DNA of 64,000 nt from an uncultured Methanosarcinales archaeon. GTDB taxonomy: Archaea > Nanobdellota > Nanobdellia > Woesearchaeales > WJKL01. The stretch spans positions 7,549 to 71,548 of the forward strand of contig CAZFSZ010000002.1 in NCBI GenBank assembly GCA_964521755.1. Reading direction: 5' to 3'. The position numbers were made by a program, and so were the translations under genes. Positions 5,708 through 57,729 of the stretch are shown here, one piece after another (the stretch's first letter is position 1; each line of letters starts with the position of its first letter). The notes beneath the pieces are model-generated. The model did not search any database. It saw only the letters and a program-made list of their open reading frames with translations, and was not told the DNA's origin.

Positions 5708-6073
5708 ATGTTAACTCTCATTATCTTTTATTTTTCTACAAGAGCCTGGCAAAACCCTGTTATGAAAGAAATAAAAAGAAATGCTTTCTTCGGTGTAGAT
5801 TACCTGCATATAGTTGAATTTTTTGTTGCTGGTTTGTTCATAACTTTTGCATTCTTTTTTTACCCAAAAACAAAAAAATCGTATCTTGTATATTCCATAG
5901 CGTCTGTTGTCTTCATTGCTGTTGCTGATGAAATATTTGTCCAGTCATTTATCCCCACAAGAACGCCGGATATCAATGATCTGATAAAAGACATGATTGG
6001 ATTTGTACTTGCATTATTTTGTTTCCTAATAATTAAAGAAGCATACCTCAATAAGTTTGGTCATTCAGAATAA
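5708..6073 (+). CDS. VanZ-like family membrane protein
   Basis: ~120 aa with 3-4 TM segments and a PTRTPDINDLIKDMIGF motif resembling the VanZ R-x-D-x-D/N-G signature. Confidence 0.4.
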   Translation: MLTLIIFYFSTRAWQNPVMKEIKRNAFFGVDYLHIVEFFVAGLFITFAFFFYPKTKKSYLVYSIASVVFIAVADEIFVQSFIPTRTPDINDLIKDMIGFVLALFCFLIIKEAYLNKFGHSE

Positions 6074-6891
6074 AATTCTTTTTTTCCCTCTTTTTCAATG
6101 TCTTCAATATCTTTCTCTATATCTTCTAATTCTTTGTCTTCTTTTTTTTGGATATCATCAATCTCTTCTTTTGACTGGGTTGGGTCTGGAACAGGTGGCT
6201 TTTTGGGGCAGGGATTGTCTTCCTTATCTTTCTCTTTTAACTGGGTTGGGTCTGGAACAGGTGGCTTGCGATCGTCTTGATTTTCTTTTTCTTTCTTCTT
6301 TTTTTCTTTCTTTTTTATTTCTGCTTCTTTTATCTTCTTTTCTGCTTCATCAATCTCTTTTTCGGTTTCATCCAGCTTCTTCTGCTCTTTTTCAGACATC
6401 ACGTTTCTGAATACCTCTTTTGCATCCTGTTTAGAAGGCAGATCAAAATAATTAAAAAACTTTTGAGTTAATGTTATCTTGTTTGTTCTGCCGTATTTTG
6501 TCCTGGAGATAAAGCCCATCTCTTCAAGCTCTTTCAGATGACCGTAAGCTTTGTTGTGCCTTATCTTTATTGCATCTGCCTGAAGTATTGGATATTTCCA
6601 TGCAACAACTGCCAGTGTCTCCATCAAAGGCTTATTCAGTTCTGTCTGGTTAACAACTTTCCTTACCATAGGCAGATAATGATCTTTTACTGTAAGCTTC
6701 CAATGACCTTCTCCTTCATCATGCAGGACCATAGAACTACCTTTTGCCTCATATTCAGTCTTAAGTTCATTCAGTGCATTTTTAATCTTGCTTTCGCTTC
6801 TTATTCCTGTAATCTTGGAAATCTCATCTACATGAATTCTTTTGCCAACTGTAAAAAGCAAGGCTTCAATCTTGTTCTTTTCGTTTGTCAT
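6061..6891 (-). CDS. scpB: segregation and condensation protein B (ScpB) with repetitive proline/lysine-rich C-terminal tail
   Basis: The N-terminal KIEALLFTVGKRIHVDEISKITG is the ScpB hallmark (EALLF), followed by two winged-helix regions. The C-terminal ~100 aa are low complexity and carry a duplicated KPPVPDPTQ unit. Confidence 0.7.
   Translation of the reverse strand: MTNEKNKIEALLFTVGKRIHVDEISKITGIRSESKIKNALNELKTEYEAKGSSMVLHDEGEGHWKLTVKDHYLPMVRKVVNQTELNKPLMETLAVVAWKYPILQADAIKIRHNKAYGHLKELEEMGFISRTKYGRTNKITLTQKFFNYFDLPSKQDAKEVFRNVMSEKEQKKLDETEKEIDEAEKKIKEAEIKKKEKKKKEKENQDDRKPPVPDPTQLKEKDKEDNPCPKKPPVPDPTQSKEEIDDIQKKEDKELEDIEKDIEDIEKEGKKEFYSE
6175..6267. repeat. 66-nt-period direct repeat (two copies; 27-nt identical core CTGGGTTGGGTCTGGAACAGGTGGCTT) inside the scpB tail
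   Basis: Identical 27-mers at 6175-6201 and 6241-6267. They encode the duplicated KKPPVPDPTQ peptide on the minus strand. Confidence 0.8.
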
Positions 6892-7489
6892 TTTTTATCC
6901 AAACATAAGAATTGTCCTCTTTTTTGATATATTCTTTATCAACAAGTTGTTTTAAGAATTTCTTCATATCTTCTTCAGACATACCTGTATACCTTGACAG
7001 GATATCAAGTTTTTTGGCGCCCCCCTTAAGCAATAAAGCTACAAGATTGACTGCCAAAGAAAATTCATTCTTTTTCAGCAACTTGTTTTCAGTATTCAGC
7101 TGTTTAACTGCCATGTCTAATTTATGCAGTTTTCCCTGCAGATCATTCATTATGGTTGTAATATCTGTGCTTTTCATCTTAAATTCTTCTGGAGCGATAA
7201 TCTCAATAGAACTTGGCATATAATCAAAACAAAAACCGACCAATACAGGAATATTTTTAGCTAATATTTCCAGCTCAACAAAAGCAGCAAAAAGTCCTTT
7301 TTCACTTTCTTCAACTTTTTTTGCTTCATTAAATTTTTCACTCAAAATCTCTAAGTCGTCATTGCTCTTCATATGTTCAATATATTTTTTAAGTGTATTC
7401 TCTATATGTTCTTTAGGTTTTCCCATTAATTCTACTATAACTCTGCCTTGGATATATCCCTGCTCTAGCTTTTCTTTTACATCTACCAT
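6866..7489 (-). CDS. putative kleisin ScpA-like protein (helical N-region plus C-terminal winged helix)
   Basis: Immediately upstream of scpB with a 26-nt overlap, the classic scpA-scpB arrangement. The C-terminal LSRYTGMSEEDMKKFLKQLVDKEYIKKED looks like a winged helix. No strong sequence motif, so the assignment is positional. Confidence 0.35.
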   Translation of the reverse strand: MVDVKEKLEQGYIQGRVIVELMGKPKEHIENTLKKYIEHMKSNDDLEILSEKFNEAKKVEESEKGLFAAFVELEILAKNIPVLVGFCFDYMPSSIEIIAPEEFKMKSTDITTIMNDLQGKLHKLDMAVKQLNTENKLLKKNEFSLAVNLVALLLKGGAKKLDILSRYTGMSEEDMKKFLKQLVDKEYIKKEDNSYVWIKNDKRKEQD

Positions 7490-7512: not shown

Positions 7513-9393
7513 TTAAAAAGTTTTTGTCAATACCAATATAACTACAGCTAAACCCAAGGCAAAAATAAAAAAACCAGGAACCAGTCTTTTTGCTTTAAAA
7601 GAAGTAGATTCATATATCAGCGCCTCTTTTAATCTGATTAGATTTGATTTTTCTTTAAGATTTTCTTCTTCCAAGAAGTCCTCTGCTGTATCATCAACCT
7701 CTTCTATAATCCTTATTTTTTCAGTTATCTCTTTCAATGTTTTCTGGTTGTTTTTTCTTATCTTGACCTTAAGATTATAGTCTCCCTGTTCTGCTTCTGT
7801 CAATTGATTGCTAAGCTTAATGGTTTCAGAGCTTCCTTCACCCAATACAATACTTTTTTTATTTTCTTCTCTTTTCCCGCTGTAACATTTAGGGCCCCTG
7901 TAAACGTAACTCCATATATCGATATCATAGTCCTCATCATCATTATTCTCTAGACTAACTTTGATATCAAATTCTTCTCCTGCCTTTACCTCATCAGGTT
8001 TTGAGATAATTTCATATTCAAATTTATTTGAAAAAATTCTGCTTTTCTCCACTTCAACTTTCTCGCATAAAGAATCCGTGATATCCTCTACCTCAAATGG
8101 AAATGAATCCTCTGCAGTATCTTCACTTGTCCATCCTACAAAAACATCATATTCTCCAAAATCATATTTTTCATTGCAGTTGGGATAAAGCTGTATAGGA
8201 ACAGCTGCTGATATATTTGTATACTTTGTAGAGATTGTGATCTTGGATTCTTTGCTTATCTTCTCGTCTCCGTCAGCAGCCCAGAATCTCAATACACTTT
8301 TTGTCTCGTCTCCCTTATAAAGGCTAACTTTTGCTCTTATTGTCTGCCCAAATTTTGCTTTGTCATCTGAACCAAGATCATATATCTTTTCTATATTAAA
8401 TTTAGATTCTTTTACTTTAGAATAATCCTTATTTTCTTCTCCGGGAGTAGGCATAGTTCTCTGCCAGTTTTCATTTACTTTCGCCCATGAACTTCCCTCA
8501 TCTGCTCCTTCATAACTCACTTTATCTGCCAAAAAAGAACCCTCGTCATAAAATTTTAATTCTTCAAAACCTTCATTATTTAGAAAACCTGAAAAGCCGT
8601 TTGTATAAACAGCCAAAAAACCTTTAGAGCTTATTATGGTGCTGCCGATTGTTGTAGTATCTGTAATATATATTCTGTGCCCCTGCAAATCTTCTAAAAA
8701 AGAATTTTGAAGATTTATATTACTTTCTCCGGAATTATAAAGCTCAATCCATTCTCCTTGAGGCATAGGAGCATCATCATTCCCATGAGGATCAGGTAAA
8801 AACTCACTGATTTTTATAACACTGTAATCTATCTCATCTGTACCATAAATACTGTTCTGCTTTCCGGGTGTTCCTCCAGCAATAAAACTTGCCCCCCAAT
8901 TATTCCAAGTATTGTCTTCAGAAAATGATATTTTCTCTAATGTATAATTATCTCCATTGCCCCCCCAGTTAGAGCTGTAATCCAGCATATCAATATATTC
9001 CCCGTCTGTAAGGATTATGCTGTCCACTGAATTCTTTAAAGAAAGAGACAAATCATAAGCACTAAAATTTCCGTCAGAAAAATTCCATATTCTGTCGTCA
9101 TTTCCCCAGCAAGCTTCAAAACTTTCGTTGTCCTTGTCAGCTCCGTCTATTAATTCATCAGCCAATATTATATATTCTCCAGCTCCGATAAAAATATATT
9201 CTAAACTCTCCCCATTTAATGTCCATCCTGTTAAGTTTACAGCTTCATCTCCAGAATTATACAGCTCAATCCATTCACAGTCATAATCATCACATTGTCC
9301 TGGATTGTACATCACTTCATTTATAATGACATCAGCAGCAGAAATATCTATAAAACAGAATGCAATAAAACACAAAAATACAAATTTATTCAT
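7513..9393 (-). CDS. secreted cell-surface protein with two lamin-tail domains (LTD) and a PGF-CTERM-like C-terminal anchor
   Basis: Signal peptide MNKFVFLCFIAFCFIDISA. Two copies of the LTD signature: INEVMYNP...EWIELYNSGDEAVNLTGW and ISEFLPDP...EWIELYNSGESNINL. The C-terminus is RLVPGFFIFALGLAVVILVLTKTF (PGF then TM then basic). Confidence 0.65.
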   Translation of the reverse strand: MNKFVFLCFIAFCFIDISAADVIINEVMYNPGQCDDYDCEWIELYNSGDEAVNLTGWTLNGESLEYIFIGAGEYIILADELIDGADKDNESFEACWGNDDRIWNFSDGNFSAYDLSLSLKNSVDSIILTDGEYIDMLDYSSNWGGNGDNYTLEKISFSEDNTWNNWGASFIAGGTPGKQNSIYGTDEIDYSVIKISEFLPDPHGNDDAPMPQGEWIELYNSGESNINLQNSFLEDLQGHRIYITDTTTIGSTIISSKGFLAVYTNGFSGFLNNEGFEELKFYDEGSFLADKVSYEGADEGSSWAKVNENWQRTMPTPGEENKDYSKVKESKFNIEKIYDLGSDDKAKFGQTIRAKVSLYKGDETKSVLRFWAADGDEKISKESKITISTKYTNISAAVPIQLYPNCNEKYDFGEYDVFVGWTSEDTAEDSFPFEVEDITDSLCEKVEVEKSRIFSNKFEYEIISKPDEVKAGEEFDIKVSLENNDDEDYDIDIWSYVYRGPKCYSGKREENKKSIVLGEGSSETIKLSNQLTEAEQGDYNLKVKIRKNNQKTLKEITEKIRIIEEVDDTAEDFLEEENLKEKSNLIRLKEALIYESTSFKAKRLVPGFFIFALGLAVVILVLTKTF

Positions 9394-9443: not shown

Positions 9444-10310
9444 TTAAATATTTCCCAGATGAATGTTTTTTAATCCAGTCTTCTTTGCTGTTTTCTCAGC
9501 TTCAAACAGAATTTTTTTATCAGTTACTGAATAATCCTTCATCAGATAATTTGGAAAAAACCTGGAAAAATGAACTGGAATATCTCTTCCCAATTCAGTC
9601 TTTATCCAACTGCACATTTTTTTGATATCTTTCATGTTATCATTCAGTCCTGGAATTATTAGGTTGGTGATTTCAATCCAAACCTTTTCTTTCTTTAATG
9701 TTTTTAGTGTATCAAGAACAGGCTTGATCCATGCTCCAGTATATTTCTTGTAAAAATCATCAGAAAAAGACTTTAAGTCGATACTTGCTGCATCTATATA
9801 TTTGCACAATTCTTTCAACGGATTTTGGTTTATAAATCCGTTAGAGACGATCACATTTTTTAATCCTTCTTTCTTTGCCAGTTTTGCTGTATCCAATACA
9901 TATTCATAAAATACGGATGGCTCTGTATAAGTGTAAGATATGCTTTTGCATCCCTTAGCTTTAGTTTTTTCTACTGCTTTCTTGGGGCTTAATTCAACCC
10001 AAGGAACATCTTCAGGCATCGCCTGACTTATTTGCCAGTTCTGGCAAAATTTGCATTTTAGATTACAGCCGGCTGTTCCAATAGAAAATGTTCTTGTTCC
10101 AGGTAAAAAATGATATAATGGTTTTTTCTCGATAGGATCTGTATTTACAGCACAAGGCGCAGCATAGACCAAAGAAAATAATTTTCCATTTTTGTTTTCT
10201 CTGGCTCTGCAAAAACCCTGTTCACCATTTTTTACAACGCATTTTCTGGGGCATATCCAGCATTTTACTTTTTTGTTTTCCAGTTTTTTATAATACAAAG
10301 CTTCCTTCAT
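9444..10310 (-). CDS. AmmeMemoRadiSam-system-type radical SAM enzyme (AmrS/PflA-like)
   Basis: CNLKCKFCQNWQIS (Cx3Cx2C), upstream CWICPRKC...GFC and AVNTDPIEKKPLYHFLPG; the whole pattern matches this family as I recall it. Confidence 0.7.
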   Translation of the reverse strand: MKEALYYKKLENKKVKCWICPRKCVVKNGEQGFCRARENKNGKLFSLVYAAPCAVNTDPIEKKPLYHFLPGTRTFSIGTAGCNLKCKFCQNWQISQAMPEDVPWVELSPKKAVEKTKAKGCKSISYTYTEPSVFYEYVLDTAKLAKKEGLKNVIVSNGFINQNPLKELCKYIDAASIDLKSFSDDFYKKYTGAWIKPVLDTLKTLKKEKVWIEITNLIIPGLNDNMKDIKKMCSWIKTELGRDIPVHFSRFFPNYLMKDYSVTDKKILFEAEKTAKKTGLKNIHLGNI

Positions 10311-10432
10311 ATTAAATAAAAACTATTAAAACAATAAAAATATTTCCTGTTTTTGTCACTATTTGATAATACTAATAAAAGTTTAAATAAAGTGTAACTT
10401 CTTAAAGTATTTATTGGGGAGGTGTAATTTTT

Positions 10433-10912
10433 ATGGGATTTACTGATTTGTTTAAAAAAAAGAGGGAACTAGAACCGCTTGGAAAGAAAAAAATAGAGGT
10501 ACCGGCTGCGCCGCCTTCAAAAAAAGAGATGCCTGAATTTCCTACTCCTAAAGAAATTCCTGAATTTAGAAAAGAAAGCGCAAAAATTGAAAAGCCGTTG
10601 TCTAAAAAAGAATATTCTTCTATTAAAAAGATAGAAAGAAATGCAGTTAGATCACAAAAGAAAGAACTGGAAGAAAGAGAAGATCTAAAACTCAAAAAAC
10701 CCATCTTTGTATATCTTGATTCTTACAAAGAAATAATGAAAGAGGTTAATCAGATTAACAACACCCTAAAAGAAGGGGATGACAGCCTAAAGAGGGTTTC
10801 TGAATTCAAAGAAGATGAAGATGAAGAATTCAAAAGATGGGAATCTCAGATAAAAGACATTCAAAAAAAGTTAATTTATGCTGACAAGACATTATTTGCA
10901 GCTCAAAAATAA
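10433..10912 (+). CDS. charged coiled-coil protein, paralog 1 of a tandem trio (unknown function)
   Basis: C-terminal domain IFVYLDSYKEIMKEVNQINN...WESQIKDIQKKLIYADKTLF is homologous to the next gene. Confidence 0.6.
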   Translation: MGFTDLFKKKRELEPLGKKKIEVPAAPPSKKEMPEFPTPKEIPEFRKESAKIEKPLSKKEYSSIKKIERNAVRSQKKELEEREDLKLKKPIFVYLDSYKEIMKEVNQINNTLKEGDDSLKRVSEFKEDEDEEFKRWESQIKDIQKKLIYADKTLFAAQK

Positions 10913-10927
10913 AGAAGGTGATAAAAT

Positions 10928-11158
10928 ATGGATGAAGAAATGCCTGTATATGTAAAGATTGATGAATACAAAGATGTTCTAGATATTATGAATATGATTC
11001 GGAATAAAATAGAAGATGCTAAAGAAACATTAGCTAAAATCAATGAATTAAAAAATGAAGAAGATGCAGAGCTTGAACTTTGGCACACTGGATTGGAAGA
11101 GATAGAAAGAAAAGTGGTATTTGTAGATAAAACATTATTTGAACCTACTGCTATTTAA
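10928..11158 (+). CDS. small coiled-coil protein, paralog 2 (unknown function)
   Basis: VYVKIDEYKDVLDIMNMIRNKIED...WHTGLEEIERKVVFVDKTLF shares the YV..D.YK...W....I..K...DKTLF pattern with paralog 1. Confidence 0.6.
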   Translation: MDEEMPVYVKIDEYKDVLDIMNMIRNKIEDAKETLAKINELKNEEDAELELWHTGLEEIERKVVFVDKTLFEPTAI

Positions 11159-11171
11159 GGGGTAATATCAA

Positions 11172-11594
11172 ATGGCAAAAAAGAAAAGCAAGAAAAATAG
11201 CAAAGAAGAAGAGGAAGTTTTCTATGTAGGTATGAAAGACCCTATAGAGATAAGAAGATCTATCTTAGAATCTTCCAAAGAGATGCTTCAATACCTTCAA
11301 AGATTTGAGAAATTCAAAAAAGTAAGAAAAGAAAAAAAAGAAGAGATTTCTCAATTAGAGGAAACTATGAAGGAGATACAGTCTCTTGTAAGAAAACTCA
11401 AAAAAGAGCTGCCAAAGACAGGGTTAAGAGCTGCTGGTAAAAAGAAAAAAACAAAGAAGAAGAAAGGCAAGAAAAAAAAGATTAAAAAAGAAGCCCCTAA
11501 ACCTGAGGTAAAAAAGCCGGAAGAGATGACTGAGCTTGAAAGACTTGAAGCAGAGCTTAACGAGATTGAAGGAAGGCTTACAAGCTTAACTTAG
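11172..11594 (+). CDS. charged coiled-coil protein, paralog 3 (more divergent; poly-Lys linker)
   Basis: FYVGMKDPIEIRRSILESSKEML...coiled coil; a K-rich linker; weak similarity to the two neighbours. Confidence 0.5.
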   Translation: MAKKKSKKNSKEEEEVFYVGMKDPIEIRRSILESSKEMLQYLQRFEKFKKVRKEKKEEISQLEETMKEIQSLVRKLKKELPKTGLRAAGKKKKTKKKKGKKKKIKKEAPKPEVKKPEEMTELERLEAELNEIEGRLTSLT

Positions 11595-21823: not shown

Positions 21824-23146
21824 TTGGTTGACATCGGAACAGCATTAAGGCACTACAAAAAAGAAGATATTCAGAAAGAGATGGTTCTACATGCTGAAAA
21901 CAAGGAGGTAGTGGGAAGCTTCAAAGGAGAGGGCTATGCTAAAAGGCCTGACACCTTGACCTATCCCAGAGACATACTTGAGCTTGTGAAACAAGGCATA
22001 ACATCTTTCCATGCTTCAGAAGAGCTATGGAGCAACCCTCTGCAGATCGACCCTATGATGAAAAAGCAGGATGTTGAAAAGTTAAGGATAGGCTGGGACC
22101 TTGTTATAGATATAGACTGCCCTTACTGGGATTACTCCAAGCTTATTGCAGACTTGATTGTCAAGGCATTAAAGCATTATAATATAGATTCTTTAAGTGT
22201 AAAATTCTCAGGAAATAAAGGATTTCATATCGGTGTTCCTTTTGAAGCCTTTCCAAAAAAGATAGGGGATGAAGACGTAAGCAAGAAATTCCCGGACCAC
22301 ATAAGATTGATAGCCAATTATCTTAAAAATATGATCAAGAACGTATTCCTTAAAAAAGTCCTTGAAATAGAAAAGAACAATATAAAAAAGATAGCAGAAA
22401 ATCTTCAAAAACCACTAAAAGAGATATCTACAGGAAAAAAACTTGACCCTGAAAAGATGATTGATATAGACACTATCCTGATATCAAGCAGGCACCTCTA
22501 TAGGATGCCTTATTCTCTTCATGAAAAATCAGGGCTCTGCTCAATCCCTGTTGATCCTGATAAGATTATGGGGTTTGATAAGTCAAGTGCAAAACCTGAA
22601 AACATATTTGTAAATAAAAAATTCAGGTTCCTGGAAAGAGAAAATATACAGCAAAACCAGGCAAAAGAATTATTTGACAAGGCAACTGAAATGATGGTAA
22701 TAAAAAAGAGCATGGAGGATTTCAAGAATAGGGAGATAAGACCAAAACAAGAGATACCAGAAGATGCTATACCTGAAAAATTCTTCCCCCCGTGCATAAA
22801 AAACATCCTAACAGGATTAAGCGACGGAAAAAAACGCTCCTTGTTTATCCTGACAAACTTTCTGACATGCTGCGGATGGGAGCATGACAAGATAAAAACT
22901 CTTCTCAAAAAATGGAATAAGCAAAATGATGAGCCCTTAAGAGAAGTCTTGCTTGTGAGCCAGCTAAGATACCACAAAAACAAGAAAAAAAACATCCCTC
23001 CTCCAAACTGCCAGAATTCCATGTATTACAAAGACTTCGGAATATGCAAGCCTGACAACTTATGCAGAAAGATAAAAAACCCTGTGCAGTATTCAAAAAG
23101 AAAGACATATTTTCTGAACAAAAATAAAAGCAGAAAAAAATCATAA
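21824..23146 (+). CDS. priS: DNA primase, fused small-subunit catalytic domain (PriS) and PriL-CTD-like C-terminal domain
   Basis: AEP motifs LVIDIDCPYW (hhhDhD) and SGNKGFHIGVPFEAF (sGxxGhH). The C-terminal FFPPCIKNILTGLSDGKKRSLFILTNFLTCCGW resembles the conserved PPC(M/I)...R..LF.L.FL..G motif of the primase large-subunit C-terminal domain, with further Cys residues downstream. Confidence 0.65.
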   Translation: MVDIGTALRHYKKEDIQKEMVLHAENKEVVGSFKGEGYAKRPDTLTYPRDILELVKQGITSFHASEELWSNPLQIDPMMKKQDVEKLRIGWDLVIDIDCPYWDYSKLIADLIVKALKHYNIDSLSVKFSGNKGFHIGVPFEAFPKKIGDEDVSKKFPDHIRLIANYLKNMIKNVFLKKVLEIEKNNIKKIAENLQKPLKEISTGKKLDPEKMIDIDTILISSRHLYRMPYSLHEKSGLCSIPVDPDKIMGFDKSSAKPENIFVNKKFRFLERENIQQNQAKELFDKATEMMVIKKSMEDFKNREIRPKQEIPEDAIPEKFFPPCIKNILTGLSDGKKRSLFILTNFLTCCGWEHDKIKTLLKKWNKQNDEPLREVLLVSQLRYHKNKKKNIPPPNCQNSMYYKDFGICKPDNLCRKIKNPVQYSKRKTYFLNKNKSRKKS

Positions 23147-43579: not shown

Positions 43580-44216
43580 ATGAAAAAGCTGAATTTCAAA
43601 AAGACAAAAAAAATTCTGGATAAATATAAAATCACTTATCCAAAATCTAAAATTACTGGTTCCAAAAAAGATGCAGTTAAGCTCGCAAAGAAGATAGGTT
43701 TTCCGGTTGTTCTAAAAATCTCTTCTCCTTCTGTAATTCACAAGACTGAAATTCATGGGGTTGAAAAATATTTACAGGACCAGAAACAAGTTAAATCTGC
43801 CTATGAAAAACTGTCAAAAATAATAACTAAAAAAAACATCAAGGATGCTAAAATCCTTCTCCAAAAGATGGTCCCTGGAACAGAGATAATCATTGGGATG
43901 AAAAGAGACCCCCAGTTTGATGTTGTTTTGATTTTCGGATTAGGGGGTGTTTTTGTTGAAGTATTAAAAGACGTTTCATTTAGGGTGGCTCCGATAGATA
44001 AAAAACAGGCAAAAGAGATGATCCAAGAGATAAAAGGGTATAAGATATTAAAAGGAGCCAGAGGAAAAAAGCCTGTAAAGATTTCTGCACTTGTAAACCT
44101 GCTGACCAAAGTCTCAAAGCTTGCTCTGGAAAATAATAATATCCAGGAGATTGATTTTAATCCTGTCATCGCAGATGAAAAATCTGCACTGGTTGTGGAT
44201 ATGAGGATCTTGGAAA

Positions 44217-44227
<11 letters not shown>
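43580..44227 (+). CDS. acdB: acetyl-CoA synthetase (ADP-forming) beta subunit (ATP-grasp)
   Basis: ATP-grasp pattern KLAKKIGFPVVLKISSPSVIHKTEIHGV; adjacent to and overlapping the alpha subunit. Confidence 0.7.
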
Positions 44228-45674
<1,447 letters not shown>

Positions 45675-46836: not shown

Positions 46837-48027
46837 ATGTTTTCAAAATTAAAGAAAAAAGCACAAGGTAATGCTTCAGCTGCTGCTGTCTTGATAGCGC
46901 TAATTGGTTTGTTTATCATATTATATATACTATTAATTCCTCCTGAAGAAAGAGAAAAAATCTTAGGAGAAGATGAACTGGAAAAAACCAAAGAAGCAGG
47001 AGAAAAAATGAATATTCTTCTTTCCGAATCTCCTGGAAGGCTCTTCCCTGCTGAAAAAAGAGAATTTGAACAGTCATTTCCAGCTGTAAGCATATATGTC
47101 GGAGAAGAAGGCATGGAATTAAAAAAACTGGATTCTTTATATGCTGGAAGATCATTGTTCAGCAGCAACAAAAACAATATCAGTTTTGAAGTTGTAAATA
47201 TTGGTAACATAGAGAATGCCCTGCTAAACTTTTATATAAAAGAAGGCCAGGGAAGGCTTATGATAAGATTAAATGGAAAAGAAATCTTTAATAAAGAACA
47301 AAAAAAAGGAAATATAGACCCCATTAATCTTAATGAATATCTTGTACAAGGAGAAAATTTGATTGAATTTGAAGTTTCCTCTCCCGGTGCAGCATTCTGG
47401 AGAACAAATGGGTATTCTCTGGAAGGTATCTTGGTGACTGCAGATATACTCAGGAAAGAAACCCAGGAAAGTTCTTTGGCTTTTGTAGCCAGTGAAGAGG
47501 AGATAAACAACATGAAAAAGGTAAAATTAAGGTTCACTCCTGACTGCACTCAAAGCACAGCAGGAACACTTACTGTAGAGATTAATAATTACAAACTTTA
47601 CTCTGCAGTTGCAGACTGTAATGTGCCTATAAAACCTTTAGAGTTCATTCCTGAAAGATTGATTGCAGGAGAAAATACACTAAAGTTTATTACAAATAAG
47701 GGAAGATACCTTATTGACAATATAATGTTAAACTCAGAATTAAAAGAAGCTGTTGCTCCTGTTTATTACTTTGAGATTGAAAAAGAAGATTTTGAAGATA
47801 TTGAAGAGAACAGAACAGAAGCAGTGTTGTACATAGAGTTTGTCGATGATATAAGTGAAAAAATTGCAGACATCACTGTTAACAACCGCCTTATGAGGCT
47901 TGACCAGACTGAAGTAGAGTTCAACCAAACTATAAGCAAATGGGTTGACCAGGGCAACAATGCCTTAAAGATAGAGCCTGAAGAAGTGCTTGACATAGTT
48001 GAATTAAAGGTTTCACTGGAAACTTAG
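46837..48027 (+). CDS. exported/membrane-anchored protein; N-terminus resembles a class III (type IV pilin-like) signal peptide
   Basis: MFSKLKKKAQG|NASAAAVLIALIGLFIILYILLI: basic stretch, Gly, then a ~22-aa hydrophobic segment. The remaining ~350 aa are hydrophilic. Confidence 0.35.
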   Translation: MFSKLKKKAQGNASAAAVLIALIGLFIILYILLIPPEEREKILGEDELEKTKEAGEKMNILLSESPGRLFPAEKREFEQSFPAVSIYVGEEGMELKKLDSLYAGRSLFSSNKNNISFEVVNIGNIENALLNFYIKEGQGRLMIRLNGKEIFNKEQKKGNIDPINLNEYLVQGENLIEFEVSSPGAAFWRTNGYSLEGILVTADILRKETQESSLAFVASEEEINNMKKVKLRFTPDCTQSTAGTLTVEINNYKLYSAVADCNVPIKPLEFIPERLIAGENTLKFITNKGRYLIDNIMLNSELKEAVAPVYYFEIEKEDFEDIEENRTEAVLYIEFVDDISEKIADITVNNRLMRLDQTEVEFNQTISKWVDQGNNALKIEPEEVLDIVELKVSLET

Positions 48028-48083
48028 ATTAAACTTAAATAAAAAAGAGGTGAATAAAGAAGAGTTCTTTTGATTAAATTAAA

Positions 48084-50159
48084 ATGGCTGAAGATGGTGT
48101 TTTTGGTTCTGCTGAAAAAGGATGGGATGTTTATATAGATGGCAAGCTTAAAGGATGGCATAGGACTAAATCATCTGCAGAAGCGGCATATCAGGAAGAA
48201 AAAGAAAAAGAGGCAAAAACAGACGCATCAGAAAAAAGTGATGAGACTGCGCCCCAAAAAGATGAAAAAACGGATTCTCCTTATTCGGGGTCTGGATTAA
48301 AAAAAGGAGCAAAAGCAACTGGAAAAGGTACGTTGAAAGGATTAAAGGCAGTAGGTACAGGAGCAATGGCAGCAGGCGGTGCTGCTCTAGGTGCATTAAA
48401 AAAAGGAAAAACAAGTAAAAAAAGAAGTCCAACAGGCGGTGCTGCTCTAGGTGCATTAAAAAAAGGAAAAACAAGTAAAAAAAGAAGTCCAACAGGCGGA
48501 GCTGGAATATGGTTTATTCTGGCTATAGTTTTATACCTTTTAGATCTGTTTATTACAAAATTTAATGGAATAGACATGGGAGTATTTTTTTCAAGATTTA
48601 TACAGCTTAGCCCTGAAAATATGGCAAGGCTGTTTTTAAATGGGGTTGTACTGGTACTGGCAATATCATACCTTTTATTAAAAAAACCCAGCAAAAGAGA
48701 ATTTTTATCTTTTTTCCTTCTGTTGGAAGTAGGAAGTCTGATCATAACATTGGGAGGAATTGATCCGGGAAGTATAATTCACATTCTGTTTGCTATATCT
48801 TTTTATATTTTTTACTTGTATCCTGTTTCAGGAGACAAGACAACAGCAAACTTTGTACTGTCTATTCTTTTGTTTATAGATTTCTTTGGATTTGGAATCC
48901 TGGCAAATTATGTAAATAATCCAATTATCTCCAACAGATTGATAATCCCTATTTGGATATATGCAATAATATTTACTACAAAAGACAAACCAACCTGGAT
49001 GAATGTTATAACTTTCTTTATAATCATAATAAATGTCTTTGCATTCTGGAACGGAGCAGTACAGCTCGGAAGGATTGAAGCAGGTCTTGAACCTGAACAG
49101 TTAGAAGAAGCCAAGGGTTTTATTTCAGGATCCTTAAAAAACATTGGGGATACATGGGGTTCATTGATGGATCCTGTTTATTGTTCTCGCCAGGAAAACT
49201 ACGATGAATGTTTAAATAAAAGAAGTGCAGAAAGAATCTGCTCAGAATATGAGGCAGGAACAGAAGAGCGTGAAGAATGTATAAATAAAGTACTTGGAAA
49301 AGGGGTGGAAGTAGAGATAAAAGAAGAGTATACTGCTACAGATATTAGATTTGAAGAACTTACAGATGCCGCATGGTATAAAAATATACCATCGAACAGC
49401 AGAGAAGAGATACCTATGAATGTTATCCTGAATGCCCCTATAGATAATCCTATAAATGTTAAACTATCTTGTTTATTTAAAACTGCAGATGAAAATGAGA
49501 TTCCTGGAATAATAAATCCTTCCAGGGCAAGGGAAATGATTGTAAAAGGAAATGACAAGGACCTGGTATATTGTTCCCCTGACCTTCATTACCCTGAACA
49601 AGACAGCATCACAGCTGTATTTGAGGTAACTGCTGAAGACATAACAACTACAGCAGTATTGGAAAGAATATTTGTAGGGGAAAAAATATGGATGGACAGA
49701 AAAGAAAAACAAAAAGTTCAGCAAACAGCTGGCTCATCCTTAAGGGAAAGCCAGGCATCTATAACTGGAGATGAATTTGCAGTTTATACTTTCAGGATAG
49801 GAGCAGACAAACTTGTCTATGATAAATCTACATTAACTTTTACTGGAAAATATGAAGATCTAAAAAAAGATGAAGGGGGGGAGCTTTTGTCTGTAAAAAA
49901 TGTTCTTATAGACCTAAGAGAATATGGTGTAGTCCCTTCACCCAATTGTGAAAAAGAAGGCTATAGGATAACTCAGGATTATAATATAATATGGGAAGGT
50001 ACAGGCAAACCATCACGTTTGACATGTGATTTAATTGTTCCAGAAAAACTAAGAAATATCAAGGATTTTGAAGATTATCCGGTAGAATTTAGGTCAGAGA
50101 TGGTTTATACTTACAAATACACCAAACAAAAAAAGATAGACTTGGTAAGCACAGCTTAA
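48084..50159 (+). CDS. large polytopic membrane protein with duplicated GAALGALKKGKTSKKRSPTG unit and big C-terminal extracytoplasmic domain
   Basis: ~7 TM segments (residues ~150-340), then a ~350-aa hydrophilic Cys-containing domain. Confidence 0.4.
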   Translation: MAEDGVFGSAEKGWDVYIDGKLKGWHRTKSSAEAAYQEEKEKEAKTDASEKSDETAPQKDEKTDSPYSGSGLKKGAKATGKGTLKGLKAVGTGAMAAGGAALGALKKGKTSKKRSPTGGAALGALKKGKTSKKRSPTGGAGIWFILAIVLYLLDLFITKFNGIDMGVFFSRFIQLSPENMARLFLNGVVLVLAISYLLLKKPSKREFLSFFLLLEVGSLIITLGGIDPGSIIHILFAISFYIFYLYPVSGDKTTANFVLSILLFIDFFGFGILANYVNNPIISNRLIIPIWIYAIIFTTKDKPTWMNVITFFIIIINVFAFWNGAVQLGRIEAGLEPEQLEEAKGFISGSLKNIGDTWGSLMDPVYCSRQENYDECLNKRSAERICSEYEAGTEEREECINKVLGKGVEVEIKEEYTATDIRFEELTDAAWYKNIPSNSREEIPMNVILNAPIDNPINVKLSCLFKTADENEIPGIINPSRAREMIVKGNDKDLVYCSPDLHYPEQDSITAVFEVTAEDITTTAVLERIFVGEKIWMDRKEKQKVQQTAGSSLRESQASITGDEFAVYTFRIGADKLVYDKSTLTFTGKYEDLKKDEGGELLSVKNVLIDLREYGVVPSPNCEKEGYRITQDYNIIWEGTGKPSRLTCDLIVPEKLRNIKDFEDYPVEFRSEMVYTYKYTKQKKIDLVSTA
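48375..48494. repeat. exact 60-nt tandem duplication within CDS
   Basis: GGCGGTGCTGCTCTAGGTGCATTAAAAAAAGGAAAAACAAGTAAAAAAAGAAGTCCAACA occurs twice back to back (48375-48434, 48435-48494). Confidence 0.9.
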
Positions 50160-50160
50160 A

Positions 50161-51012
50161 ATGAAAAAAATATTAATTTTATTGATTACTGGATTTATCA
50201 TAATTCTTGCTGGATGCAAAAGAACAACCCCTGATTTAGAGCCCGAGTTGATAGAATACCATAAAGGAACCCATGCACTAAAGATGAATTTTGTTGAAAA
50301 TCTCCCACCTGATGAGATTACCGAAGGAAGTGAATTTATAATAGGATTGGAATTAGAAAATAAAGGGGCTTTCGATATTGAAAATGGAGAAATTTCAATA
50401 TCTGGATATGACCAAAGCAAGATTCAAATCGATGACCCTGAAAAATACTTTAATATAGAAGGCAAAAAACCAGGGTTTCCTGAAGGCGGATATGAAATCA
50501 TGAATTTTCAGGGAAAGAATATAGATTTTCCAAAGATTAAAGAAATAGATCCAGCAAAATTGAAGATAATTGCAAGGTATGATTATCAGACAGAAGCAGG
50601 AGCAGAGGTTTGCATAAATCCTGACATATACAGCCATATAAAAACCAAAGAAAATATATGCGAGCCAAAAGAGATTACCCTATCTGATGGTCAGGGAGCG
50701 CCTGTTGCAGTGACTAAGATACAGCAGGAGCCTGTTCCTTTCGAAAACAAGATAAGGATAAAATTCAATATTTATTTGGAAAACAAAGGAGATGGAAATA
50801 TTAAAGACAACATCACAATAGATGAAGTAAGGCTTGCTAACGTACCGATAGCATGCACAAAAAAGAACATTGAATTGAAGGAGGATAAAAAGATAGAATG
50901 CTATACAGAAATACTGGCAGATGCTGGAGCATATTTGACTTCTCTTTCGATTAAATTAGATTACAAATACATATCAAGAATAAGTAAGGCAGTTCAAATA
51001 AAAAAACAATAA
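50161..51012 (+). CDS. secreted lipoprotein, paralog A of a tandem family (unknown function)
   Basis: Lipobox LAGC. Shared motifs with next two genes: ELENKGAFD, PEGGYE, SDGQGAPVAVTKIQ, and C-terminal LSIKLDYKYISRISKAVQIK. Confidence 0.55.
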   Translation: MKKILILLITGFIIILAGCKRTTPDLEPELIEYHKGTHALKMNFVENLPPDEITEGSEFIIGLELENKGAFDIENGEISISGYDQSKIQIDDPEKYFNIEGKKPGFPEGGYEIMNFQGKNIDFPKIKEIDPAKLKIIARYDYQTEAGAEVCINPDIYSHIKTKENICEPKEITLSDGQGAPVAVTKIQQEPVPFENKIRIKFNIYLENKGDGNIKDNITIDEVRLANVPIACTKKNIELKEDKKIECYTEILADAGAYLTSLSIKLDYKYISRISKAVQIKKQ

Positions 51013-51057
51013 TATTTTCCGAAAAACTTAAATAAATAATAAACGCAGTTAAATAAG

Positions 51058-51993
51058 ATGAAAAAACTACCTTTAATTTTATTTGTATTGGTTCTTACAG
51101 TTATTTGCGGCTGTAGGAGACAGCCCGGACCAGATGATGAACAAGATATCTCTAGAGATATCTATAAAGGCGCCAAAGGCCTTGAAATGAACTTTATCAA
51201 AGACATGCCTCAAAGTAGGATTTATGATACATCGGATCTAACTATCCTGCTTGAATTGGAAAACAAAGGCACTTATGATCTTTCTGGAACCAATTGTAGA
51301 TTATATCTTTCTGGATTCGATGATAAAATAATAAGGGGATTAGATAAGACCAAGATATGTTCTTCTTTTCTGGAAGGAAAAAGTCCCTTAAACCCTGAAG
51401 GCGGATATTCCACTCAACAATTTTCTACAGACCTCATCAATCTTCCTGATTATCTTGATTCGCTTAATCAAAGAATATTATTGACTGCATGCTACGAATA
51501 CAAGACAAAAGCCTCCCCTGTTGTATGTATTGACCCTAATCTTTATGAAATTGGCCCTATCGAAAGAGGGTGCACAGTAAGAGACGTCTCAGTACCGGGG
51601 GGCCAGGGAGCACCTGTTGCTGTATCAGGAGTTAATGTTGAGATGGTTGGCAAAGAAAAAGTATCTTTCAATATAAAATTATCTAATACAGGGGGAGGGA
51701 CAGTGCTAAACTCTGGAGCAGATGTATTCACTGACTGCCCTTATCAAATAAACCCAAAAGATTATAATATAGTAAGATATGAAGTTGATATGTCAGGAGG
51801 AACAAAAATAAGATGCACTCCTGAAATTGAAGGAAGTGAAAAAACTAGGCTTGTGAATAACAAAGGAACAATATATTGCACCTTTGATATTTCAGGAGAT
51901 TCAGCCTATACAACACCGTTAAGGATAACTTTAGACTATAACTATATGGATTCAATCTCAAAAGATGTTGAAATAATAAAAACACCAGGATGA
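51058..51993 (+). CDS. secreted (lipo)protein, paralog B
   Basis: Signal peptide ...LTVICGC. Motifs ELENKGTYD, NPEGGYS, VPGGQGAPVAVSGV, and C-terminal LRITLDYNYMDSISKDVEIIK. Confidence 0.55.
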   Translation: MKKLPLILFVLVLTVICGCRRQPGPDDEQDISRDIYKGAKGLEMNFIKDMPQSRIYDTSDLTILLELENKGTYDLSGTNCRLYLSGFDDKIIRGLDKTKICSSFLEGKSPLNPEGGYSTQQFSTDLINLPDYLDSLNQRILLTACYEYKTKASPVVCIDPNLYEIGPIERGCTVRDVSVPGGQGAPVAVSGVNVEMVGKEKVSFNIKLSNTGGGTVLNSGADVFTDCPYQINPKDYNIVRYEVDMSGGTKIRCTPEIEGSEKTRLVNNKGTIYCTFDISGDSAYTTPLRITLDYNYMDSISKDVEIIKTPG

Positions 51994-52018
51994 TTAAAAT
52001 TAAAAAGGAGGTTTAAAA

Positions 52019-52936
52019 ATGAGTAAAAAAATATTAGCAATGTTTATTATTGTCTTTGCAGCATTATTCATTGCAGGCTGTGAAGACGGAGAAAAAGAAA
52101 CTACTGGACCATCCCCTTATATAAGTGGAACTAAAGGCATTACTGCTGAATTTGAACCTATGGGTATTGAAGATAATGGTCTTTATTCTCTTTATGAAAA
52201 TGAAGAGTTTCCTATCCAAGTTCTCCTTAAAAACAAGGGAGAGCACGATATAGAATCTGGAGATGCTAAAGTAAAAATATATGGTATTCTTTTAGAAGAT
52301 TTTTCTGGAATAGAATCAGGAACAAAGACAAACAGCCAGGAAATAGAAAAAATTTCAGAATTCAATGAAGAAGGTGGTGAAGAAATAATTGATTTCGGGC
52401 AAAATGTAAAATATACACAGGAAATTCCCGGAACATTCTATGATTTAAATGTATTTGCTAGCTATACATACAGCTATAAAACCTATGCATCAGTCCCTAA
52501 TGTCTGCTTCAAAGAAGATCTAAGAGACGAAAGGGTATGCACTGTAGAAGAATCAAAAGATATTTTCTGCTCTGGAGCTCCGATCCAGGTAACTTCAGCA
52601 GAAGAAAAACCTGCAGGGTCTGGGATAATAGAGCTTGACTTTGAGATTGAGAATGTGGGTGGAGGAAGAGCAACAATACCTGGACAAGAATTCTCACCTC
52701 AATACGACCAAGTTGCATTCACTATAGAACCAGAAACAGAAAGAAATAAATGGCTCTGCAGAGCAGGAGCAAGGGAAAATGAAGCAAGGCTAATTGATGA
52801 TAAATCCACTATTAGATGTAAGCTAAGAGAGCCTCTGGAAGAAGATGCTTTATACACAAAAGCAATTGGTTTAACCCTAAGCTATGACTACAGAGATATA
52901 ATTCAACAAAAAATTAGGATAGAAAAAGAAATTTAA
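52019..52936 (+). CDS. secreted lipoprotein, paralog C
   Basis: Lipobox FIAGC. Motifs LLKNKGEHD, NEEGGEE, CSGAPIQVTSAEEKP, and C-terminal IGLTLSYDYRDIIQQKIRIEK. Confidence 0.55.
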   Translation: MSKKILAMFIIVFAALFIAGCEDGEKETTGPSPYISGTKGITAEFEPMGIEDNGLYSLYENEEFPIQVLLKNKGEHDIESGDAKVKIYGILLEDFSGIESGTKTNSQEIEKISEFNEEGGEEIIDFGQNVKYTQEIPGTFYDLNVFASYTYSYKTYASVPNVCFKEDLRDERVCTVEESKDIFCSGAPIQVTSAEEKPAGSGIIELDFEIENVGGGRATIPGQEFSPQYDQVAFTIEPETERNKWLCRAGARENEARLIDDKSTIRCKLREPLEEDALYTKAIGLTLSYDYRDIIQQKIRIEKEI

Positions 52937-56868: not shown

Positions 56869-57729
56869 TTATTTTGTTCTTTTTTCTAATAATCCTTTGA
56901 GAGAATCTTCATCAAAACACTGCTTTTTCAGACCGCATTTACAGCATTTGTTTTGGTTCTCTGTTCTTTTTGGGATTTTATTCTCTTCTAATAATCTTCT
57001 GACCTTATCCTTTAGTTCTTTTACTTCTTCTTTTAAAAAAGGATTTATCACCACCTGTCTTCTTTCATCAGGATCAAGATAATGGATAAAGGCTTCTTCT
57101 ATCTTTTTGCCGTACTTCTCTTCCATCATTAAAGCATATGCTCCTATCTGAACCCTGTGACCGGGCCATACCCCTTCCTTAGGCATACTCCCTGTCTTTA
57201 ATTCTACAGGCACATAACCTTCAGGATAAATCTCTATCTTGTCTACAATCCCTTTTAATTCAAGTTCATCTGAAGCTATCTTTTTTTCAGATTCAACTTT
57301 GGGAACCAAATTGTCCCATAATTCAACCCCATACAGGTTAGATTTAACAATAAATTTGTATATGTTTAATGCTCTTATCTCACTTTCTCTCTTAAAAAAA
57401 GGCCATATCTCATGATATGCATCGATCAAAGGAAGCTTGATGTTCCTTAACCTGTATTTGTTCTTTGTAATGGATTTTCTTAATAAAGCAGAATAAGTCT
57501 TTGCATATCTGTTATAGATATCTTCAAATTCATCTCCTTTTTTGATACTTGAAACAATTCTTTCTTCTACCTTGTTTGCCTCGTCATAAGTCTCATGCCT
57601 TATGCTGCCCTTTACTAAAGCTGCTTTTTCAGGCTCAAACAGCCCTAAAACCCTCTCTAAAAACAACTTTCTAGCGCAGTATAGGTAAGAACTTAACATA
57701 GTAACAGATATTCTTCTCTTTCTAGCCAT
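56869..57729 (-). CDS. Cas4-like PD-(D/E)xK nuclease with C-terminal Fe-S Cys cluster (DUF83/RecB family), standalone
   Basis: N-terminal SSYLYCARKLFL (Cas4 YxCPRKhWL-like). GIVDKIEIYPEGYVPVELKTG gives the D...ExK core. RVQIGAYALMM is the QhxxY motif. C-terminal CCKCGLKKQC gives the Cx2Cx5C pattern. Confidence 0.65.
   Translation of the reverse strand: MARKRRISVTMLSSYLYCARKLFLERVLGLFEPEKAALVKGSIRHETYDEANKVEERIVSSIKKGDEFEDIYNRYAKTYSALLRKSITKNKYRLRNIKLPLIDAYHEIWPFFKRESEIRALNIYKFIVKSNLYGVELWDNLVPKVESEKKIASDELELKGIVDKIEIYPEGYVPVELKTGSMPKEGVWPGHRVQIGAYALMMEEKYGKKIEEAFIHYLDPDERRQVVINPFLKEEVKELKDKVRRLLEENKIPKRTENQNKCCKCGLKKQCFDEDSLKGLLEKRTK

Follow-up and report, generated by a model that had tools for sequence, protein, structure and literature searches.

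The radical SAM enzyme AmrS, Memo and AMMECR1 occur widely across bacteria and archaea, and human homologs exist for two of the three. No experimentally established function was found in the literature for any of them; the AmmeMemoRadiSam system is mentioned in passing only, and its COG identifiers are never listed together. An analysis of Memo-AMMECR1-radical SAM contexts by Burroughs et al. (2019, JBC) is said to have tied the Memo clade to nucleotide-base and isoprenoid modification. The stretch of DNA studied here, referred to as the window (64 kb, about 34% G+C), is a housekeeping segment from a DPANN archaeal genome. It carries the archaeal genes for the ribosomal proteins L3 and L4, eRF1, RFC, PheRS and ScpB, as well as a proteasome-activating AAA ATPase and a fused PriS-PriL primase. 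Among these genes lies one for an AmrS-like protein, which a first-pass annotation described as an orphan in a new genomic context. The locus raises the question of whether this enzyme has lost its partners and adopted a new role among its neighbours, or whether it is an ordinary AmrS in the gene order of its lineage.

The AmrS gene of the window

9444..10310, minus strand: AmrS-family radical SAM enzyme, short form, 288 aa, match to TIGR04337

The open reading frame fills exactly this span from ATG to TAA. The stop codon is real: it is followed by more in-frame stops, and the next gene lies 50 bp downstream. Two motifs had been quoted in support of an AmrS assignment, GCNLKCKFCQNWQIS, which holds the CX3CX2C radical SAM motif, and DPIEKKPLYHFLPG, and both are present in the translation. 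A profile search with the NCBIfam model TIGR04337 confirmed the assignment, with a score of 332.9 bits (E = 1.8e-99) at a curated cutoff of 220, and the Pfam domain Radical_SAM (PF04055) was found at 9.6e-24. The gene is a genuine member of the AmmeMemoRadiSam radical SAM family. Close homologs are named 'AmmeMemoRadiSam system radical SAM enzyme [Candidatus Woesearchaeota archaeon]' by NCBI, and a protein identical to that of the window is already present in a public collection.

Linkage to Memo and AMMECR1

Members of this family had been expected to sit in an operon with AMMECR1 and Memo homologs (AmrA/AmrB), and neither was thought to be encoded within the 64 kb. The latter claim holds in three kinds of search. 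No Pfam match to AMMECR1 (PF01871) or Memo (PF01875) was obtained among 40 window proteins, a set that leaves aside the ribosomal-protein block at 25.4-37.4 kb and GyrA, RNase J, PCNA and Hef, which were identified by synteny. A six-frame phmmer search of the whole window with a bacterial Memo-AMMECR1 fusion protein (from locus L005) gave a best E of 0.6, and in a six-frame hmmsearch with Memo and AMMECR1 profiles derived from 64-69 sequences the best E values were 0.19 and 1.0. As a positive control, the same fusion query retrieved human MEMO1 at 8e-20 and three archaeal AMMECR1 structures (3e-41, 9e-41 and 1e-31), which makes the negative result for the 64 kb meaningful. The MJ0538-like neighbour (207 aa) was considered as a diverged AMMECR1 and rejected, since it has a C-terminal winged helix and gave no AMMECR1 signal in any search.

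For comparison, 172 loci with AmrS relatives were gathered from reference genomes, metagenomes and exact-protein look-ups, and linkage was counted only in loci with at least 4 kb on each side of the AmrS gene:

GTDB bacterial loci: Memo and/or AMMECR1 in 34 of 40 (in 33 as one fused gene directly downstream), none in 6
DPANN-type archaeal loci: Memo and/or AMMECR1 in 0 of 13 (span about 8-10 kb), none in 13
Unlabelled metagenome loci: Memo and/or AMMECR1 in 13 of 21, none in 8

Archaeal and bacterial loci thus differ in linkage with a Fisher p of 3e-8; the archaeal loci share ancestry, however, so that their 0 of 13 counts a single evolutionary event or a few, rather than 13 independent ones. 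An AMMECR1 gene of the Methanosarcina type likewise has neither Memo nor a radical SAM gene within 10 kb, and Makarova et al. (2019, PMC6393860) record a PIN/Zn-ribbon gene as the linked neighbour of archaeal AMMECR1 (arCOG01336, 429 of 524 genomes). The expected operon is therefore a bacterial rule, which stands for bacteria but fails for DPANN-type archaea, and an unlinked AmrS is the normal state for the lineage of the window. With an AMMECR1 profile seeded by three archaeal PDB sequences, the best 120 matches all came from Thermococcales, Methanosarcina or Sulfolobales, relatives of the seeds. Unlinked AmrS proteins outside the archaea represent a separate architecture with an N-terminal twin-arginine-type signal. 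The description of the window enzyme as an orphan is partly supported by these data. Many archaeal core genes are missing from DPANN genomes (PMC6393860), which makes a real loss of the partners plausible.

A conserved neighbourhood in Woesearchaeota

The neighbours are those named in the first-pass annotation, a surface protein downstream of AmrS and, on the opposite strand upstream of it, a trio of small helical proteins:

6061..6891, minus strand: ScpB (segregation and condensation protein B); Pfam SMC_ScpB at 1.5e-32 and synteny
6866..7489, minus strand: MJ0538-like protein with a C-terminal winged helix, 207 aa; synteny and weak wHTH matches
7513..9393, minus strand: LTD surface protein, 626 aa, 50 bp downstream of AmrS; Pfam LTD at 1.2e-27 in two stretches
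10311..10432, no strand: divergent intergenic region common to AmrS and cc1, 122 bp; alignment of 9 loci
10356..10375, no strand: 8-4-8 inverted repeat TTAGTATTATCAAATAGTGA, between two TATA-like boxes
10433..10912, plus strand: cc1, 159 aa; alignments, no Pfam or NCBIfam family
10928..11158, plus strand: cc2, 76 aa, single long helix; predicted structure, no Pfam or NCBIfam family
11172..11594, plus strand: cc3, 140 aa; alignment and model, no Pfam or NCBIfam family

This context is not confined to the window. The same neighbourhood is kept across Woesearchaeota down to 57-60% AmrS identity, and this conservation means that it may be an inherited gene order rather than a functional clue. In the window and in twelve loci gathered for comparison (L001-4, L006-8, L011, L088-90 and L093), cc1 and AmrS lie head-to-head; L088-L090 were picked via cc2 instead of AmrS, and the arrangement is found in 3 of 3. 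The genes beyond the helical trio vary and encode RNase J and PCNA, an ABC transporter, an AsnC regulator or a helicase. Pfam and NCBIfam searches with cc1, cc2 and cc3 returned sub-threshold coiled-coil noise only. The protein cc1 consists of a short N-terminal segment, a proline-rich low-complexity linker and a C-terminal helical domain of about 70 amino acids, which is shared with cc2 and contains the invariant residues P6, V9, W52, D67 and F71. The structural model of cc2 (pLDDT 86.5) has a helix over residues 11-71. In cc3, a long helix is followed by a lysine-rich disordered linker and a conserved C-terminal helix (ELxxLExELxxI), with the modelled helices at residues 24-79 and 121-139. 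The cc2 family comprises 860 homologs, of which all named ones are hypothetical proteins of Woesearchaeota, and it is more conserved than AmrS, with 60-92% identity where AmrS has 58-78%.

On the other side of AmrS, the LTD protein is predicted from its sequence to be secreted, with a signal peptide, two LTD domains and a C-terminal membrane anchor. A homolog lies downstream of AmrS in all archaeal loci examined, with one or two genes in between in L086, L089 and L090. The LTD gene is usually followed by the gene of the MJ0538-like winged-helix protein, ScpB and GyrA; a precomputed PF27325 (MJ0538) assignment is available for the MJ0538-like homologs of L001-3, L006, L088-90 and L092.

AmrS and cc1 share a divergent promoter region, in which a Shine-Dalgarno sequence and a TATA-like box precede cc1 and a TATA-like TTTTTAT lies about 28 nt upstream of the AmrS ATG; these are putative archaeal promoter elements. 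A sigma-70 promoter scan was disregarded, as it is inapplicable to an archaeon. The alignment of nine loci revealed a conserved block, TTAT(A/T)TAAAC-TTTC-TTAGTATT-N4-AATAGTGA. The inverted repeat keeps its position in 8-9 loci, forms a perfect palindrome in L011 (TTACCATTCTAGAATGGTAA) and has a single match in the 64 kb, where 0.10 would be expected by chance. It is a candidate regulator-binding (operator) site.

This constancy gives some weight to the proposal that the enzyme is truly orphan and repurposed: Woesearchaeota would have no Memo or AMMECR1, and AmrS would act on or with a neighbour, either the LTD protein before its export or the helical trio. The trio/AmrS and AmrS/LTD pairs persist in all Woesearchaeota loci while the outer flanks change, AmrS is followed by the LTD protein and MJ0538 even in the archaeal loci L086 and L092, which have no trio, and the conserved inverted repeat lies in the promoter region common to AmrS and cc1. 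Moreover, radical SAM domains akin to those associated with Memo and AMMECR1 have been found in peptide-processing systems (Kaur et al. 2020, PMC7159879). However, the block includes ScpB and GyrA and therefore resembles a conserved housekeeping gene order, so that the neighbourhood alone is insufficient to establish the function of AmrS. At 25-40% identity, the LTD protein diverges faster than would be expected of a co-evolving substrate site, and its gene may have a TATA-like box of its own, as read from the sequence. The trio proteins contain neither a glycyl-radical-type nor a cysteine-rich motif, and their alignments show no conserved glycine or cysteine motif; a trio protein was therefore rejected as a glycyl-radical-type substrate. 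A functional link between AmrS and its conserved neighbours is improbable.

Catalytic core and C-terminal tail

In radical SAM enzymes, the CX3CX2C motif binds a [4Fe-4S] cluster and SAM. The corresponding cysteines of the window enzyme, C82, C86 and C89 (C82-N-L-K-C86-K-F-C89), are 100% conserved among 119 homologs, and so is an N-terminal CX2CX3CX9C set (C17, C20, C24 and C34), whose role is deduced from its sequence pattern. The enzyme is identical at 86 of 89 highly conserved columns, and the three departures, I26V, N176S and Y284H, are all conservative. In 98 partner-linked AmrS proteins, 78 columns are at least 90% conserved; the DPANN set keeps 70 of them, and no clade-specific replacement was found in DPANN AmrS at any of the 78. 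Only two conservative signature positions, G78 and I172, set the archaeal clade apart. The undiverged core therefore favours an active enzyme with the same chemistry as canonical AmrS and makes a pseudogene or a complete switch of substrate less likely. For the repurposed enzyme, the 78 core positions without clade-specific replacement likewise argue against a new substrate or partner.

The C-terminus departs from the family. Most homologs have about 334 amino acids and end with nTyC-PkC, 19-20 residues and gkC-x-CG..I.GvW, a Cys4 pattern typical of a zinc ribbon that would bind a metal. The alignment of the window enzyme to TIGR04337 spans model positions 3-286 of 349 only, so that the protein has no counterpart to the model's C-terminal part. 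The enzyme ends at HLGNI, directly before the stop codons, and lacks the Cys4 tail (model positions about 287-349), a deficit of about 46 residues relative to most homologs. The missing tail does not figure in the first-pass annotation. Five relatives with 72-78% identity have the same short form ending in HLGNI or YLGNV and constitute one clade with the window enzyme in a neighbour-joining tree, in which five other short forms are scattered among the long ones. An intact tail occurs in 93 of 96 partner-linked enzymes vs 8 of 13 DPANN enzymes (p = 5e-4, with the DPANN loci being related). Among the latter, it was deleted in the clade of the window, L001 and L002 and separately in L092, and in L089 CPKC has changed to CPES, which amounts to at least three independent events of loss or decay. 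This pattern, deletion in one clade and decay in other DPANN lineages, suggests a relaxed constraint on whatever the tail binds, and the tail itself appears to be under relaxed constraint in DPANN.

Tail loss or decay in 5 of 13 DPANN enzymes, as opposed to 3 of 96 partner-linked ones, is also consistent with a lost interaction partner and speaks for the repurposed enzyme. In that scenario, Woesearchaeota and related DPANN archaea would have lost Memo and AMMECR1 and kept AmrS, which would act alone or with the co-regulated trio and/or the LTD protein, while the tail, no longer needed for docking, is being lost. Weighed against the undiverged core and the housekeeping-like block, this scenario is unlikely, as is the notion of a truly orphan enzyme acting on a neighbour.

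A still weaker case can be made for a decaying gene, i.e., a truncated pseudogene or non-functional remnant in a streamlined genome, given that the protein is about 46 residues shorter than most homologs, a deficit that takes in a conserved Cys4 motif, and that the partner genes are not nearby. The frame is intact, however, and six proteins of one clade, with 72-78% identity to each other, all terminate cleanly at an identical position, as would be expected if the short form were under purifying selection. The protein retains every cluster-binding cysteine and 86 of the 89 conserved columns, and short forms have arisen independently in other lineages, including L133, where a short-form AmrS lies in a partner-linked bacterial locus. 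A gene in decay is thus very improbable. Finally, a misassigned glycyl-radical-enzyme activase of the PflA, NrdG or YjjW type is effectively refuted: although JGI labels many homologs 'pyruvate formate lyase activating enzyme' and the closest solved structure by sequence is the PflA activase (E = 3.4e-9; the structure search returned none of AmrS itself), none of the activase models comes near its cutoff (YjjW, TIGR04041, 74.9 of 250.2 bits; PflA, TIGR02493, 71.2 of 231.75; NrdG2, TIGR02495, 52.9 of 131.15) while TIGR04337 passes, no glycyl-radical enzyme domain occurs in the 40 window proteins scanned with Pfam, and homologs with 45-60% identity stand in canonical Memo-AMMECR1 operons; the better match to a PflA or anaerobic RNR activase clade against which the first-pass annotation had cautioned is excluded, with no activase model above 75 bits.

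Proposed function and significance

Most likely, the window encodes a genuine and probably active AmrS without a tail, which performs the canonical chemistry within a gene order inherited in Woesearchaeota and whose partners are encoded elsewhere or have been lost. The enzyme would reductively cleave SAM to a 5'-deoxyadenosyl radical, and the radical would abstract a hydrogen atom from the same substrate as in canonical AmrS. The term canonical chemistry is a placeholder here, because no biochemical function has been established for any AmrS. The substrate may be a macromolecule, since the nearest characterised relatives, the glycyl-radical-enzyme activases, act on proteins. The genes for Memo and AMMECR1 would somewhat more probably be located elsewhere in the genome, and their loss is kept as a plausible alternative because the tail is decaying and the genome is streamlined. 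The zinc ribbon has been deleted in the clade of the window and is in decay elsewhere among DPANN archaea.

Public databases already contain the family and its annotation in Woesearchaeota. What appears to be new is the lineage-wide uncoupling from Memo and AMMECR1, the recurrent loss of the tail, and the conserved context of helical trio, promoter region and LTD protein. With an intact core that is never found beside its partners and a tail that has been lost repeatedly, the lineage amounts to a natural experiment in taking the system apart. Should the partners prove truly absent, the activity of AmrS would be independent of them and the tail the leading candidate for partner docking; if they are present elsewhere, the lineage simply follows an archaeal habit of dispersing the three genes. 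Should the enzyme indeed be an orphan that acts with its neighbours, the lineage would be a natural minimal system for finding the AmrS substrate. The payoff is modest at present and consists of a testable prediction for the tail and a defined set of genomes for co-occurrence analysis.

Comparison with known systems

The glycyl-radical-enzyme activases (PflA, PDB 3C8F/3CB8; NrdG; YjjW) are the nearest characterised radical SAM relatives of AmrS and share its core over residues 70-229. As the alignment begins at residue 70, the N-terminal Cys4 region has no aligned counterpart in PflA, and AmrS scores 3- to 4-fold below the family cutoffs of the activases. The bacterial AmrS proteins with a twin-arginine signal (such as L009, L021, L099 and L143) are 47-58% identical to the window enzyme and also have no adjacent Memo or AMMECR1; however, their N-terminus is extended by about 40-100 residues that include an RR(E/D)F(L/I)K-type signal, an extension absent from the window enzyme.

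The operon-encoded AmrS proteins of bacteria share 45-60% identity with the window enzyme, together with the radical SAM motif, the N-terminal Cys4 set and the conserved core positions. Identity to the enzymes of Omnitrophota is 55-60%, which may point to an inter-domain transfer of amrS that left the partner gene behind. They differ from it in the tail, which 93 of the 96 partner-linked enzymes carry, and in their context, as the window enzyme has no Memo or AMMECR1 within 64 kb and lies in a DPANN-specific neighbourhood. The long-form AmrS proteins of Woesearchaeota (such as P0008, P0012 and P0063; about 334 aa) are 58-71% identical, are likewise not linked to Memo or AMMECR1 and are accompanied by the same trio, LTD protein, MJ0538, ScpB and GyrA. 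They have kept the zinc-ribbon tail, whereas the window protein and its five closest relatives have not. The AmrS of the window is thus a modest departure within a known family.

AmrS relatives in bacteria

In the lists of AmrS homologs, the radical SAM enzymes from Omnitrophota share 55-60% identity with those from Woesearchaeota, and distant copies within the Woesearchaeota reach about the same level (57-58%). Since the Omnitrophota proteins are thus about as similar as these distant woesearchaeal copies, the values hint at a transfer of amrS between domains of life. One of the collected loci with AmrS relatives, L032, belongs to Ca. Velamenicoccus archaeovorus, a member of the Omnitrophota that attacks archaea.

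Among the AmrS open reading frames of the collected loci, a bacterial subfamily carries an additional 40-100 residues (approximately) at the N-terminus (L009, L021, L023, L039, L049, L057, L099, L112, L114, L123, L126, L137, L139, L143, L151, L156 and L161). Most of these extensions possess a twin-arginine-type signal (e.g., SRREFIKK, DRRDFLRF, TRRRFLGS), and the genes are not adjoined by Memo/AMMECR1, the usual bacterial partners of AmrS. If a radical SAM enzyme bore a Tat signal, the Fe-S protein would be exported in its folded state and so be separated from the SAM and the reductant of the cytoplasm, an odd situation.

Further genes of the window

The following genes are located elsewhere in the window:

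21824-23146, + strand: fused PriS-PriL primase, one protein of 440 aa with primase small- and large-subunit domains (PF01896 and PF04104)
43580-45617, + strand: two overlapping genes, one for an ATP-grasp_5 protein, the other for a CoA-binding/succinyl-CoA-ligase-like protein
46837-52936, + strand: 6-kb block of five successive open reading frames (396, 691, 283, 311 and 305 aa)
56869-57729, - strand: Cas4/PD-(D/E)XK nuclease homolog (PF01930, 1e-18)

The overlapping pair resembles a split ADP-forming acyl-CoA synthetase, which would be one of the few metabolic functions of the window. None of the five proteins encoded in the 6-kb block has a Pfam match at E <= 0.001. Pfam, run on 40 proteins of the window, detected a cas domain in none but the Cas4 homolog. 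The GyrA protein of the window (807 aa) is free of inteins; in two related Woesearchaeota loci, gyrA is broken by inteins with LAGLIDADG homing-endonuclease domains, the gene at L006:14118-18056 by one and the partial gene at L090:1-1821 by two.

The divergent AmrS/cc1 region and cc1

The putative promoter region from which AmrS and the small helical-protein gene cc1 diverge has two TATA-like boxes, and these flank a conserved 8-4-8 inverted repeat, TTAGTATT-ATCA-AATAGTGA (10356-10375). This repeat, a candidate binding site for a regulator, occurs only once in the 64-kb window and is a perfect palindrome in the collected locus L011. The cc1 protein (10433-10912) has no sequence match to SepF or to any other family. 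In it, a proline-rich linker joins a short N-terminal segment (MGFTDLFKKK) to a helical domain at the C-terminus, a layout that resembles that of membrane-tethered cytoskeletal adaptors.
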